Below are positions 9,690 to 13,457 of a stretch of DNA of 64,000 bases, piece after piece. The stretch is taken from the NCBI RefSeq assembly GCF_050920415.1, contig NZ_CP169309.1, one strand, 5' to 3'. A model generated the notes under the pieces. The model saw only the letters and a list, made by a program, of their open reading frames with translations. It made no database searches and was not told the origin of the DNA. Made by a program: the position numbers and the translations under genes. Source of the stretch: Escherichia coli (GTDB taxonomy: Bacteria > Pseudomonadota > Gammaproteobacteria > Enterobacterales > Enterobacteriaceae). Within the stretch, counting starts at the first letter, position 1. Every line of letters starts with the position of its first letter.

Positions 9690-9943
9690 ACAACCAGACA
9701 ATGACTTTTACCCCTGAACAATTACGCAAACAGGCGCAGGAAATGCTGCGACAGGCGGAACAACTGGAAAAATCAGGCGTAACAAAAGATGCCATTCGTC
9801 GGGATATGGTACCCGCGCTCAGAGAACTGATGCAGGCAAAACACCGCGCACAAAAAGCGGTGGATGAGCTGGTGGATTGTGTGGCAGAGCTGGAAACAAA
9901 AGTTGGAAAATTTGAAAAACTGGTGCAGGAGGTACTGCGCTGA
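9686..9943 (+). CDS. Small hypothetical coiled-coil protein (probable start at ATG 9701)
   Basis: Track ORF between the helicase and the Q-like gene; no family recognised. Confidence 0.4.
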
Positions 9944-10308
9944 TGCGTGATATTCAGATGGTTCTTGAGCGTTGGGGGGCGTGGGTGGCAAATAACCACG
10001 AAGATGTTACCTGGTCGTCGATTGCTGCGGGATTCAAAGGACTGATTCCGTCAAAGGTTAAGTCACGTCCGCAATGTTGTGACGATGACGCGATGATCAT
10101 TTGTGGTTGCATGGCTCGTCTGAAAAAGAACAACCGTGACTTGCATGATCTGCTCGTGGATTATTACGTTGGGGGAATGACTTTTATGGCGCTTGCAAGG
10201 AAACATGGACGTTCAGATTGCTGGGTTGGTCGTTTGTTGCAAAAAGCAGAGGGGATCGTGGCTGGTATGTTAATGATGTTGGATGTCAAACTAGAGATGG
10301 AATATTAA
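9943..10308 (+). CDS. Late-gene antiterminator, Q-like (short QuuD-type)
   Basis: 121 aa; sequence ([24 protein letters not shown]...[20 protein letters not shown]) closely resembles what I recall of DLP12 QuuD; lies just upstream of the late/lysis region. Confidence 0.65.
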
Positions 10309-10475
10309 TTTAATTCTCATAGAATTCTTTTCTTTATGAGGGGCGAATAATGCCCCTAAACTAGAATATTATAGCTGCCTCATTATCTGGGCAGCATTAG
10401 GTTGTTGAGTGGTTTTCGCTATTAAAGCAATCATTCAAAAGGTATAAAATATGAAGCTGGGTTCTATATTAACGC

Positions 10476-11663
10476 TTACTCCATGCTAAGTGAATCCTGA
10501 TAGCGCTTAAATGCCTCCGCGAAAGCTAGAGCAGCATCAGCATTTGATACCATGTATTCTTCTGTAATGCCTGTTTGGGACTGGAAATATAACTTTCCAT
10601 AAATGCAAATTGGGATTTGATAGTTATCTTTAAATCGTCGGTCTGGTGAGCCATCTTTATTTGTTTTTGCCCATGTATGCCCAGCTATGCTGGCATCACT
10701 CGGAACACCATCCTCTTCATGGAACCCTTGATGCTGCGCATTAATTTGTAATTCCCGTAAGTCAATCAGAGCAAATGCCCCATCGGGGCGAGGAATTACA
10801 GCAATACCCGGATAAAGCAATATATCGTCGCCATTGACATTTTCAAATCGCATTGCTCTTCCAGTAAAACGAATTAGATCTGTTGAAGCGAAATCAAATA
10901 CGACTGGATGACGATCAACTGCTCGTGTAGCTAACGTCCTTTCTGCAAACTGATCTATAGCTTTATCTGCGGTAATATCCCATTTTTTGATACTTGATTT
11001 TAAAATATCGAAAGCACGAATCATTGCTGCATAAGCCCGCTGTGAGGAATCGCTGGTTTCGAAATTAATGACGATTTTAGTGTTATCTTCCCAGGATACA
11101 AGACGAGATACTTCTGCTTGTATTTGTGGTAGCGTTGCTTCAAGTTCTGCAATGCGACGTTTATAAAACCATCGAAACAGGCTTGATTTACGTCGAGCCA
11201 ATTCACTCTTTTGTCTTGATTCTTCTGCAAGAGCCTCTTGTAAGTCAGATGCTATTTCCGCTCTTTGTTCTCGTGCTTTAACGATCAAGTCTCGTAAAGG
11301 TAAAAGAGATGTACTTGTCAAGGCCTCTACTGAGGCACTGGAGATTTCATTCATGCCTGTTTGTGGCATGTACATTTTTGCGTTTGATGGGGTGTTGTCT
11401 GAAATTAACTCGGGTGCATCAATATGAGATTCTACAGACGACGGATTTAGCTGAATGGTTGTGGATGGTTTGTCTTTGTATGGTAAACGAGGGGATGTAT
11501 ACGATAAACCAGATCCTGGTAACCCTAGAGTTGCTTTAATTCCTTTTTGGTTAACATTAACTGTGGCTCCGGGGACACCAAAACTTGCGCTTACCCCATG
11601 TTTACCGATGTTAAGGCGTACTCCGGGGAAAATGGTAAAAGTTTGTCTGAAGCGAAGAGACAT
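10476..11663 (-). CDS. Cargo protein with DUF4236-like N-terminus, central coiled coil and uncharacterised C-terminal domain (395 aa)
   Basis: Long ORF opposite to the late operon in the Q-to-lysis slot; N-terminus LRFRQTFTIFPGVRLNIGKHGVSASFGVPGATVNVN matches the DUF4236 pattern; no signal peptide or TM segment. Confidence 0.75.
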   Translation of the reverse strand: MSLRFRQTFTIFPGVRLNIGKHGVSASFGVPGATVNVNQKGIKATLGLPGSGLSYTSPRLPYKDKPSTTIQLNPSSVESHIDAPELISDNTPSNAKMYMPQTGMNEISSASVEALTSTSLLPLRDLIVKAREQRAEIASDLQEALAEESRQKSELARRKSSLFRWFYKRRIAELEATLPQIQAEVSRLVSWEDNTKIVINFETSDSSQRAYAAMIRAFDILKSSIKKWDITADKAIDQFAERTLATRAVDRHPVVFDFASTDLIRFTGRAMRFENVNGDDILLYPGIAVIPRPDGAFALIDLRELQINAQHQGFHEEDGVPSDASIAGHTWAKTNKDGSPDRRFKDNYQIPICIYGKLYFQSQTGITEEYMVSNADAALAFAEAFKRYQDSLSME

Positions 11664-11693
11664 AAGATAATCCCTGTGTAGTAATGTCTAAAG

Positions 11694-11716
11694 TTACATT
11701 CCATACTGGAATGTAA
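11694..11716. promoter_or_regulatory. Perfect inverted repeat TTACATTCCA-tac-TGGAATGTAA upstream of the cargo gene (candidate operator)
   Basis: 10-bp arms with 3-bp spacer, 30-55 bp upstream of the start codon at 11663. Confidence 0.35.
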
Positions 11717-11854
11717 TACTGCGATGAGACACGAGGCTCATTAAGGATTTTGGCATTTTGCTGACATAAATTCTATAAAAATTATGGTGATAAACGTTTT
11801 ACAATCGTAAAAAAACAAATATGCTGTTAAGAGTGGTACTACGCCACACAGCTT

Positions 11855-11881
11855 AAACCCGCCGATGAGCGGGTTTTTTTG
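11855..11881 (+). terminator. Intrinsic terminator
   Basis: CCCGC-cgatga-GCGGG followed by TTTTTTT. Confidence 0.55.
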
Positions 11882-11890
11882 TGCACAGAA

Positions 11891-11913
11891 AACCCCCAGC
11901 TAGGCTGGGGGTT
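11891..11913 (-). terminator. Hairpin, probable leftward terminator
   Basis: AACCCCCAGC-tag-GCTGGGGGTT perfect inverted repeat; a T-run follows on the minus strand. Confidence 0.4.
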
Positions 11914-12036
11914 CCGGAAAGCTTTCAGCTTTGAGCCAGTTATTAAAACCCCTTTTGATTTGTTAAAACACCTTGCGGTCTGGCAACTTCTTAACTCACT
12001 TATTGTTTCCACCCATGTTTTTGGATACCTGCTGTA

Positions 12037-12074
12037 GCTGTCAGATTAGCGCGATAATCTGACAGCTTTTTTTT
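12037..12074 (+). terminator. Strong intrinsic terminator
   Basis: 12-bp stem GCTGTCAGATTA / TAATCTGACAGC followed by TTTTTTTT. Confidence 0.65.
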
Positions 12075-12363
12075 ACAACGAATCCTTCTGATCTGCTTTT
12101 GCGGGGCTTTTTTGTATCCGCTCCATGCCCGGCGTATAAGCGGAGGTTGGTCAGTTTTCTAAAAATTGAAATACCTCACAATTCAGCCAGTTAATGGTTG
12201 TTTGTCTGGCGAAGAGTTTGTAAATAAAAAAACGCATGGTGAATCCCCCTAAGCGGCGGGGCGAATCAGCAGTCAGTTCTGGGATAATCGCGGGTTCGTA
12301 TGCTGATGCCGGACTCACCGGGAGGCACCCGGCACCATGCATCATGGTCATCCCCTTGTATGA

Positions 12364-12389
12364 TACCCCTCTCCGGAGGGGTATTTTTT
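12364..12389 (+). terminator. Intrinsic terminator
   Basis: TACCCCT-ctccgg-AGGGGTA followed by TTTTTT. Confidence 0.55.
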
Positions 12390-12821
12390 GGATAAAAAAG
12401 CCCGCGCTGGGAGGCACGGGCGGCAAGGAATAAAACGTGAAGAAATTTTCACAGGCGCATAATAATCCGATGTTGCCAGATTTTGCAACTGCATCATCTG
12501 GTTATTATGTGAGCTGGAAAATCAGATTCTGTATGGACTGAAGCCATGCTGTTATTCAGGGCCAAAGAACGGACTTTTTCTTCCGCCTTTCAGGTAACGA
12601 TTAATGAGAAAAAGACTGAAATGCCCCCTCGGGGAGGAGGATAGTAGAAAAAAGAACCCGCCAGCAAAAATATTGGGGGGATGAACAGCTTTCGCTACTC
12701 TGGTTGCTGGCGGGTATAGCTCCTCATGAATAAGAATGTCGCGGTATTTTTTAATGGAAATGAGAATCATTGTCAACTGATTGCGTGTGTTGTCTTCATA
12801 CATGACTGGTAAAGGTGATTC

Positions 12822-12854
12822 AGGCCATCAGAGTTTTGCTGATGGCCTTTTTTC
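12822..12854 (+). terminator. tR'-like terminator immediately upstream of the holin gene
   Basis: AGGCCATCAG-agttttg-CTGATGGCCT followed by TTTTTTC, ~35 bp before the holin start. Confidence 0.55.
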
Positions 12855-12886
12855 TTTCCGGTAGCACAGGTCTGTCGGGGCGGGAT

Positions 12887-13102
12887 ATGTATCAGATGGA
12901 AAAAATATCAACAGGCATTGCCTACGGCACCTCCGCAGGCAGTGCTGGCTACTGGTTTTTACAGTGGCTTGATCAGGTCAGCCCGTCACAGTGGGCTGCG
13001 ATTGGTGTACTGGGAAGTCTGGTTCTGGGCTTTCTGACTTATCTGACGAATCTGTACTTCAAAATCAGAGAAGACAGAAGAAAGGCTGCGAGAGGAGAGT
13101 AA
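12887..13102 (+). CDS. Pinholin, phage-21 S21-like (71 aa)
   Basis: [71 protein letters not shown] matches what I recall of S21; track ORF 12815 trimmed to the Met after the terminator. Confidence 0.8.
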
Positions 13103-13106
13103 TATA

Positions 13107-13457
13107 ATGGTCCAAAACTATGAAATGATTGTGAAAGGGATCCGCAATTTTGAGAATAAAGTTACGGTAACTTTAGCATTACAGGACAAAGAACGCTTTG
13201 ACGGTGAAATTTTTGACCTGGACATCTCGCTGGACCGTGTTGAAGGTGCCGCGCTGGAGTTTTATGAGGCAGTAGCCAGAAGGAGCATCAGACAGGTCTT
13301 CCTGGATGTTGCTGCCGGGTTATGTGAAGGGGATGAGCAGTCGCCGGAAAAGCGCCCCGTAATTTTAGAGGCGCAGAATGTGTGGATAACCTACAAAGGA
13401 AAGCTACCAGGAAGAATTACTGGTTCTCTGAAGACTCCTCCGGAATCACAACCTTAA
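13107..13457 (+). CDS. Hypothetical 116-aa protein embedded in the lysis cassette
   Basis: Starts 4 bp after the pinholin stop and ends 63 bp before the endolysin; soluble, acidic, no family recognised. Confidence 0.5.
   Translation: MVQNYEMIVKGIRNFENKVTVTLALQDKERFDGEIFDLDISLDRVEGAALEFYEAVARRSIRQVFLDVAAGLCEGDEQSPEKRPVILEAQNVWITYKGKLPGRITGSLKTPPESQP

Follow-up and report, generated by a model that had tools for sequence, protein, structure and literature searches.

The stretch of DNA analysed here, hereafter the window, comprises 64,000 nucleotides of Escherichia coli contig NZ_CP169309.1 (RefSeq assembly GCF_050920415.1). It contains a prophage in which a single gene, the cargo gene, lies on the opposite strand between the genes of a Q-like antiterminator and a class II holin (Table 1). 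The open reading frame (ORF) list and matches to PHROG profiles agree on this arrangement, which a preliminary description of the DNA had already proposed. The RefSeq entry for the identical gene, WP_000058540.1, is named 'DUF4236 domain-containing protein'. Residues 1-393 of the encoded protein align with positions 1-382 of the 390-position profile of PHROG 17982, a phage family of unknown function (E = 3.4e-172). The family is already catalogued in Pfam (as DUF4236), PHROG and RefSeq, yet uncharacterised. A literature search for DUF4236, PF14020 and the RefSeq accession found no functional study, with an incidental mention only. As a prophage feature, the cargo gene is an opposite-strand moron in the gap between Q and the putative late promoter pR', like nmpC. 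Its product is an uncharacterised moron protein and a moderate candidate for a role in defence.

The cargo gene in its prophage slot

The cargo gene is real and intact, and is under strong purifying selection. Its ratio of nonsynonymous to synonymous substitution rates (dN/dS) is 0.20 against a 94%-identical allele and about 0.09 against the Serratia, Klebsiella and Enterobacter homologues. These values and the conservation of homologues across genera establish it as a genuine gene. The gene is also a foreign insert in the prophage. Its G+C content is 41.8% (30% at third codon positions) as compared with 50.4% for the prophage, and it splits Q from a putative late promoter block that directly follows Q in an O157 prophage. 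The idea of a cargo moron, part of the preliminary description, is substantiated by these two properties.

The late promoter block diverges from the cargo gene and points toward the lysis genes. It consists of a -35 element TTTACA (11798-11803), a 16-nt spacer, a -10 element TATGCT (11820-11825), a conserved leader of about 30 nt and an intrinsic terminator with a stem at 11855-11876 followed by a T-tract. Of 5,426 complete E. coli genomes, 3,706 carry a homologous promoter-leader-terminator block. In an O157:H7 prophage, the block begins right at the stop codon of Q, and in DLP12 of K-12, it separates the 5' end of nmpC from essD; five sequences align well through promoter, leader and terminator. 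A constitutive promoter with an immediate terminator between Q and the lysis cassette is the pR'-tR' layout of lambdoid phages, restated for Stx phages (PMC7547250). Since the block has this layout, we infer from its position and conservation that it represents pR'-tR'. In StxS of strain Sakai, tR' lies about 258 nt from pR' (PMC7547250). In the O157 locus used for comparison, no tR' was found at about this distance, and the early hairpin terminator of the window recurs there instead, so the assignment of pR' is kept as a probable one.

The cargo gene appears to be inserted between Q and pR', diverging from pR', and is not in the position of stx. The slot had been likened to those of both nmpC and stx, and the first of these comparisons holds. 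DLP12 and the prophage in the window both have a QuuD-like Q and an opposite-strand foreign gene between Q and the conserved block preceding the holin. The products differ: that of nmpC is an outer-membrane porin synthesised with a signal peptide, and that of the cargo gene is a soluble DUF4236/PH-like protein unrelated to it in sequence. The literature on the DLP12 late promoter yielded nothing usable. The comparison with stx is right in that both are foreign cargo of lambdoid prophages that share a Q family, placed between Q and the lysis genes. It fails in topology: stx is located 3' of pR'/tR' on the late strand and is Q-dependent (PMC7547250), whereas the cargo gene is located 5' of the putative pR' and on the other strand, out of reach of transcription from that promoter. 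The Q-to-lysis region thus has two cargo sites, a presumably Q-independent one upstream of pR' (nmpC and the cargo gene) and a Q-dependent one downstream (stx). The distinction matters for predicting the timing of cargo expression.

Upstream of the cargo gene, 30-52 nt 5' of its ATG, lies a perfect 10-bp inverted repeat with a 3-nt spacer, TTACATTCCA-tac-TGGAATGTAA. It had been described accurately and is a non-random sequence feature. The window contains nine perfect inverted repeats with arms of at least 10 bp and loops of at most 12, compared with 0.87 in dinucleotide shuffles, and the full palindrome pattern, allowing up to three mismatches, occurs in a single copy with 0 expected. The remaining eight repeats are more G+C-rich, and at least three of them coincide with terminator-like hairpins. 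The palindrome is the only AT-rich repeat of the nine and has no T-tail, and is therefore not a terminator.

The dedicated regulation that had been read from the palindrome is not borne out. It is perfect in loci of 99.7% identity. In a relative from an O158:H23 strain (locus L002), whose ORF is intact and 94% identical, the left arm is TTAT-TGCCA, destroyed by two substitutions and one deletion. The Serratia, Klebsiella, E. coli O8 and Enterobacter orthologues have a leader of about 45 nt and the ribosome-binding site in common with the window, and the upstream leader is conserved across genera over about 45-100 nt. The palindrome itself is missing from the regions 5' of the orthologues in Serratia, Klebsiella, Enterobacter and Paracoccus, Klebsiella alone having a weak 6-bp repeat there. 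The window contains no second copy and no excess of half-sites, and the ORF list has no regulator gene adjacent to the palindrome. For these reasons, a conserved dedicated operator is not supported, and the palindrome may instead be a lineage-specific site or a hairpin of the 5' untranslated region. RNA folding predicts a 10-bp hairpin in the 5' region that leaves the ribosome-binding site free (minimum free energy -23.1 kcal/mol, z -2.0). Two other upstream candidates were discarded. A LexA box within the palindrome was rejected by eye, the pattern being CTG-N10-CTG instead of CTG-N10-CAG, and a motif apparently common with Serratia, GTTTATCACCATAATTTTTATAGAA, was dropped at a local alignment score of 30 against a shuffle maximum of 27.

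On its other side, the cargo gene converges on Q. A terminator scan of the gap between them found no canonical terminator on either strand, so antisense read-through is possible in both directions. Beyond the cargo gene, a mosaic junction lies at 11882, where homology to the Q/cargo/pR' module of strain 08-00022 ends just 3' of the pR'-proximal terminator. Other E. coli prophages match from about 11793 on, and no complete E. coli genome spans 10300-12900 as a whole. Between 10200 and 13000, 13 terminator-like sites are found where 3.0 are expected, an excess that fits a multi-terminator leader read through by Q-modified polymerase. At least four strong plus-strand intrinsic terminators precede the holin, with stems at 11855, 12036, 12362 and 12822 (11855-12848). 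Rfam searches of the 1.1-kb non-coding late leader before the holin matched STnc490, an Hfq-binding small RNA, at 11891-12005 (+; 72 bits, threshold 56) and STnc100 at 12205-12393 (+; 114 bits, threshold 47), with an SgrS-like match below threshold at 12634-12853. The holin is followed by an endolysin and then an Rz spanin, as identified by PHROG matches and by the same RefSeq names in near-identical loci. A 116-residue ORF (13107-13457, +; phrog_406/2091, E = 1e-66) lies between holin and endolysin. No tRNA genes were found in the window.

Table 1. Features of the cargo locus, with positions in the window
Feature	Position	Strand	Description	Basis
Q-like antiterminator	9943..10308	+	121 aa, QuuD/Q933 type, convergent with cargo gene	phrog_79, E 1e-50; RefSeq 'antiterminator Q family protein'
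Q/cargo convergent gap	10309..10475		167 bp, intergenic	two short G+C hairpins without T-tracts
Cargo gene	10476..11663 (stop codon included)	-	395-aa protein with N-terminal DUF4236, full-length PHROG 17982 member	ORF list, ATG start
C-terminal conserved domain	10479..11081	-	residues 195-395, predicted PH-like beta-sandwich capped by C-terminal helix	predicted structure
Helical hairpin	11082..11297	-	residues 123-194, predicted antiparallel hairpin/coiled coil	AlphaFold2 helices 123-160, 164-194, pLDDT 85-91
Linker	11301..11495	-	residues 57-121	alignment; pLDDT <50 for 64-121
DUF4236 domain	11496..11657	-	residues 3-56, three Gly-rich amphipathic beta-hairpin repeats	Pfam PF14020, AlphaFold2
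Shine-Dalgarno sequence	11671..11675	-	AGGGA, 7 nt 5' of ATG, inside ~45-nt leader conserved across genera	sequence, alignment
Palindrome	11694..11716		perfect 10-bp inverted repeat, 3-nt spacer	sequence
Putative late promoter block pR'-tR'	11798..11883	+	diverges from cargo gene	promoter/terminator scan, conservation, position
Class II holin	12887..13102	+	71 aa, first lysis gene, right-hand slot boundary	phrog_9876 and phrog_20; RefSeq name

Architecture of the cargo protein and its family

The cargo protein is composed of an N-terminal DUF4236 domain, a linker, a helical hairpin and a C-terminal conserved domain. DUF4236 (PF14020) is the sole Pfam match, with residues 3-56 covering positions 1-55 of the 55-position model (E = 3.6e-19). 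The full-length AlphaFold2 model has a predicted local distance difference test score (pLDDT) of 72. It displays hairpins at residues 7-56, disorder at 64-121, a helical hairpin at 123-194 and an alpha/beta domain ending in a long helix. The DUF4236 strands are predicted at residues 7-12, 15-20, 23-30, 33-38 and 41-47, and the sequence of the domain is nearly invariant in 46 homologues, over which the mean column identity is 76%. The first part of the linker (58-92) is variable. Residues 95-121 (NAKxYMPQxGMNEISSASVExLTSxSL) are nearly invariant although predicted to be disordered, suggesting that they fold on a partner or within an oligomer.

These results agree with the preliminary description, which had recognised the DUF4236 N terminus and a coiled coil at about residues 120-190, and had noted the lack of a signal peptide or transmembrane (TM) segment and of a nameable family over the last 200 residues. 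A hydropathy scan of the 395-residue protein, a low threshold included, found no TM segment and no 19-residue stretch above 1.2 on the Kyte-Doolittle scale. Pfam, NCBIfam and PADLOC contain no family that covers the C-terminal 200 residues. The protein had no true match in NCBIfam, a hit to ArsN2 being spurious (12.5 bits against a cut-off of 125 bits).

The C-terminal domain was folded alone with a deeper alignment after the full-length model. The resulting model has a pLDDT of 95.8, and its structural matches are PH/PTB-type folds only. The structure prediction to which the preliminary description had left this domain thus gives a confident fold, and the domain is predicted to be a PH-domain-like superfold, a two-sheet beta-sandwich capped by a C-terminal amphipathic helix. 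It differs from eukaryotic-type PH/PTB domains, such as the Sin1 PH domain (PDB 3voq), by a sequence identity of 3-13% and Z scores below 7. About 100 further residues of the C-terminal domain lie outside the match. The full-length model gave insignificant Foldseek matches only in the PDB, to coiled-coil and MscS proteins. No sequence relatives were found in the PDB, where profile searches returned coiled-coil noise. The predicted structure has no recognisable catalytic fold.

Some 25 positions do not vary even among distant relatives. Many of these are charged or aromatic, among them W228-D229, R242, R251, E316, D323 and the loop W-x-K-x-N-K-D-G-S-P-D-R-R-F of the C-terminal domain, and they point to a precise site for a ligand or partner. 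Metal binding by this loop is a speculation.

The family is large. A search with residues 94-395 against 1.84 billion representative proteins retrieved 2,934 clusters (50% identity) at E <1e-3 and 417 at E <1e-30. Family members come from Proteobacteria, Bacteroidota, Cyanobacteria and others, and Foldseek finds the C-terminal domain spread over many phyla. Many relatives are 500-730 residues long. A single TM segment follows the core directly in 48 of the 65 relatives of at least 430 residues, and a Pfam scan of 50 long relatives found SH3_3 in 29 and PG_binding_1 at the C terminus in 2-4. The simplest arrangement for the long forms, which have no N-terminal signal peptide, places the core in the cytoplasm and the SH3b or peptidoglycan-binding domain in the periplasm. 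In Chryseobacterium koreense (L071, 9017-12361), a 1,114-residue fusion combines DUF4236, TM2, the coil and family C-terminal domain, an FtsK-gamma winged helix and an AAA+ domain with AAA_lid_6. Matches of the C-terminal domain in AFDB50 named DUF4263, DUF4238 and CHASE were not relied on, and the FtsK-gamma/AAA+ fusion alone was verified.

Distribution and genomic neighbours

The identical gene is found in 11 complete E. coli genomes and the 94%-identical allele in one more, the O158:H23 strain, and every one of these copies bears the annotation 'DUF4236 domain-containing protein'. Another 122 E. coli genomes hold a second allele with 76% nucleotide identity to the cargo gene. The spread is patchy, with 134 of 5,426 E. 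coli genomes carrying the gene and 126 motif matches in 100,044 species genomes. Full-length homologues of 394-405 residues and 62-93% identity occur in Serratia, Yersinia, Klebsiella, Enterobacter, Edwardsiella and Rhodobacterales. The Rhodobacterales copies are 62-64% identical and ameliorated in G+C content. The Paracoccus copy, for example, has a G+C content of 59.5% in a locus of 66.7%, an adjustment indicating an old resident rather than a recent transfer.

The family gene is solo in every context, and the contexts are diverse. It lies 3' of Q in the window and in 12 E. coli genomes, 3' of lambda P in Enterobacter, and at a prophage end 3' of the tail fibres in Klebsiella and the 122 E. 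coli genomes with the second allele. Other copies reside on a conjugative element in Serratia, on plasmids, or alone among housekeeping genes in Paracoccus. Homology between the cargo cassettes of different genera stops at the stop codon. The second allele, as exemplified by E. coli DETEC-P169 (L104, 5970-7172), has stayed intact although the prophage around it, at tRNA-Pro/yejM, has decayed; it lies at the prophage end, beside pseudogenes for tail-tip, tail-fibre, tail-fibre-assembly and DinI proteins. Its preservation inside a decayed prophage argues for selection for host benefit. Parts of the protein also occur separately. Klebsiella plasmids (H150-H155) carry unannotated copies without the N terminus, spanning residues 124-393 at 80% identity. 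The DUF4236 domain alone has matches on about 2,690 plasmids, 1,689 of them conjugative. It also matches virulent Klebsiella and Brevundimonas phages, as well as C. difficile temperate phages, in which the tail chaperone and the tape measure flank it.

Neighbouring genes were compared across a sample of 84 family loci. Thirteen of these loci (about 15%, from about seven lineages) adjoin Hhe/PDC-S37, Zorya, Hachiman or Gabija. The association with defence systems appears to be real, in a minority of loci, and exceeds what we would estimate for a gene taken at random. Most common among the neighbours, with 10 of the 84 loci and at least five lineages, is a giant helicase-nuclease of superfamily 1 that matches PADLOC PDC-S37/Hhe with E values of 1e-57 to 1e-267. 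In Azospirillum, it is separated from the family gene by -29 to +11 nt, suggesting a two-gene unit. Long members with TM and SH3b parts lie directly 3' of the helicase in Azospirillum and relatives (L017, L036, L037, L039, L040 and L052) and in L095, L063 and L019. The partner helicase has about 1,660 residues and combines AAA_11/AAA_12 with a DUF559/MTES_1575 nuclease; the version in L019 adds a protein-kinase domain. Hhe and PDC-S37 are PADLOC names of single-gene candidates. They are the most frequent neighbours and operon-like in Azospirillum, but their models do not describe the family protein, which is a separate gene.

Other systems are represented more sparsely. The Serratia orthologue adjoins Gabija GajA/GajB (E = 0), the 63%-identical Labrenzia/Roseibium orthologue lies directly 3' of a complete Zorya ZorB/C/D, and the Arenibacter copy is flanked by Hachiman HamB and an Hhe/PDC-S37 helicase. 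The locus of Labrenzia sp. THAF82 (L033, 1140-15401) is a possible defence island. It contains a candidate ZorA (a 641-residue ORF), ZorB, ZorC and ZorD, then the orthologue of 389 residues, and continues with a protein of 412 residues of unknown nature and an SMC-like ATPase of 1,145 residues with weak LmuB similarity. A channel homologue of about 260 residues (Ion_trans/Ion_trans_2) is encoded a few genes from the family gene in L019, L029, L033 and L099, which represent three unrelated lineages.

Possible roles of the cargo gene

We tentatively prefer the reading that the cargo gene is a host-beneficial moron whose product, a non-enzymatic binding or scaffold protein of the cytoplasmic envelope face, most likely serves exclusion of, or defence against, phages and mobile DNA. 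Transcription would run leftward from the gene's own upstream region independently of Q, which would allow expression in the lysogen. The protein may oligomerise through the helical hairpin, the PH-like domain with its invariant charged loop may recognise a conserved ligand or partner, and the DUF4236 module may mediate assembly or membrane contact. The host would benefit, most likely by exclusion of incoming phages or other mobile DNA or by defence against them. The link to the envelope is supported by the TM segment and SH3b/PG_binding_1 domains of the long relatives. An abortive-infection or exclusion function had been offered in the preliminary description; the 13 loci that adjoin known or candidate defence systems favour it, the PADLOC search of the protein does not, and it is still a guess.

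Several observations weigh against the preferred reading. That PADLOC search (PADLOC-DB v2.0.0) found no family at E <=1, the ZorA and ZorB models included. No strong defence match was found among 30 large neighbours from 16 other loci, and the association falls far below the majority of loci usually needed for guilt-by-association calls. Hhe/PDC-S37 neighbours are absent from the window and from the enterobacterial loci examined. The family is rare in phages: 50,697 phage records contain two full-length matches, and 2.9 million viral contigs (IMG/VR) contain 13 loci. Conservation this high across classes is unusual for arms-race genes. A promoter scan found no minus-strand sigma-70 consensus promoter 5' of the cargo gene. 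Oligomerisation, ligand recognition and membrane association derive from the predicted structure only. In addition, the cargo protein is the short soluble form of the family, lacking the TM and SH3b parts of the long forms, and for the TM segments of those the positive-inside rule (16, 19, 13) gave no decision on topology.

A wider version of the defence reading is rather unlikely. It holds that the DUF4236/coiled-coil/PH-like core is a widespread module of conflict systems. The long form would be a peptidoglycan-tethered invasion sensor paired with Hhe/PDC-S37, following a Zorya-like logic with unrelated parts, and the short prophage form would be a stand-alone, single-gene exclusion or defence factor outside current catalogues. 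The resemblance to Zorya is one of logic and applies to the long members, which are peptidoglycan-binding and membrane-anchored, with a cytoplasmic coiled coil, and are encoded beside a large helicase-nuclease. The cargo protein differs in having no TM segment, no peptidoglycan-binding domain and no helicase partner in E. coli. The family-level picture, with a PH-like core, peptidoglycan-tethered long forms, pairing with Hhe/PDC-S37 and occasional residence in defence islands, is new but not yet strong enough to define a new system.

The TM and SH3b/PG_binding_1 parts of the long forms would also fit a factor of the envelope or of cell physiology that is unrelated to defence, a scaffold that, for example, couples a cytoplasmic process to peptidoglycan. 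The prophage copy would then represent lysogenic conversion of host physiology or stress tolerance. This account is possible but on the unlikely side. It is consistent with the many family genes that have housekeeping neighbours and neither a mobile nor a defence context, with strong purifying selection and the ancient, G+C-ameliorated residence in Rhodobacterales, and with the scarcity of the family in phages and the negative PADLOC result. It explains less well the patchy spread within E. coli and among species genomes, the repeated occupation of moron slots and mobile elements, the defence systems that repeatedly adjoin the family gene, and a short form without envelope-anchoring parts. The membrane link could also reflect an abortive-infection effector, in which amphipathic DUF4236 hairpins insert into or perturb the inner membrane upon a trigger from the C-terminal domain and kill or arrest the infected cell; the protein would then be an effector rather than a sensor or scaffold. 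The DUF4236 strands are Gly-rich, with polar residues alternating with hydrophobic ones, relatives carry fused membrane modules (one TM segment or TM2), a solo gene is compatible with single-protein abortive-infection systems, and ion-channel genes are neighbours in four loci of three lineages. We nevertheless regard this role as improbable. The cargo protein has no predicted TM segment or pore-forming fold, the DUF4236 model is of moderate confidence (pLDDT 66-73), and the frequent occurrence of DUF4236 alone, on about 2,690 plasmids and in phages both virulent and temperate, is hard to reconcile with a dedicated suicide module.

The locus might instead serve the phage. Convergent antisense transcription could damp Q and stabilise lysogeny in the manner of lambda paQ, or the protein could act in the lytic cycle, the palindrome being an operator in this case. 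The 167-bp gap in which the cargo gene and Q converge lacks a canonical terminator, the palindrome is statistically non-random, and Q, the cargo gene and pR' form one conserved module in 12 E. coli genomes, with homology up to 11882; all of this fits such a role. The role is very unlikely, given that purifying selection on the protein is strong also where no Q gene or no phage is present. Moreover, the palindrome is broken in L002 and absent elsewhere, with neither an adjacent regulator gene nor a second operator copy.

If the cargo gene has no phenotype, it is an ordinary uncharacterised moron. The tight pairing of long forms with Hhe/PDC-S37 suggests that some 'single-gene' candidates are two-gene, envelope-linked systems in some lineages. 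If lysogens are protected, the anti-phage repertoire would gain a single-gene system that is not yet listed. A defence role of this kind, if true, would provide the first function for DUF4236 and for the highly conserved PH-like domain of about 2,900 clusters.

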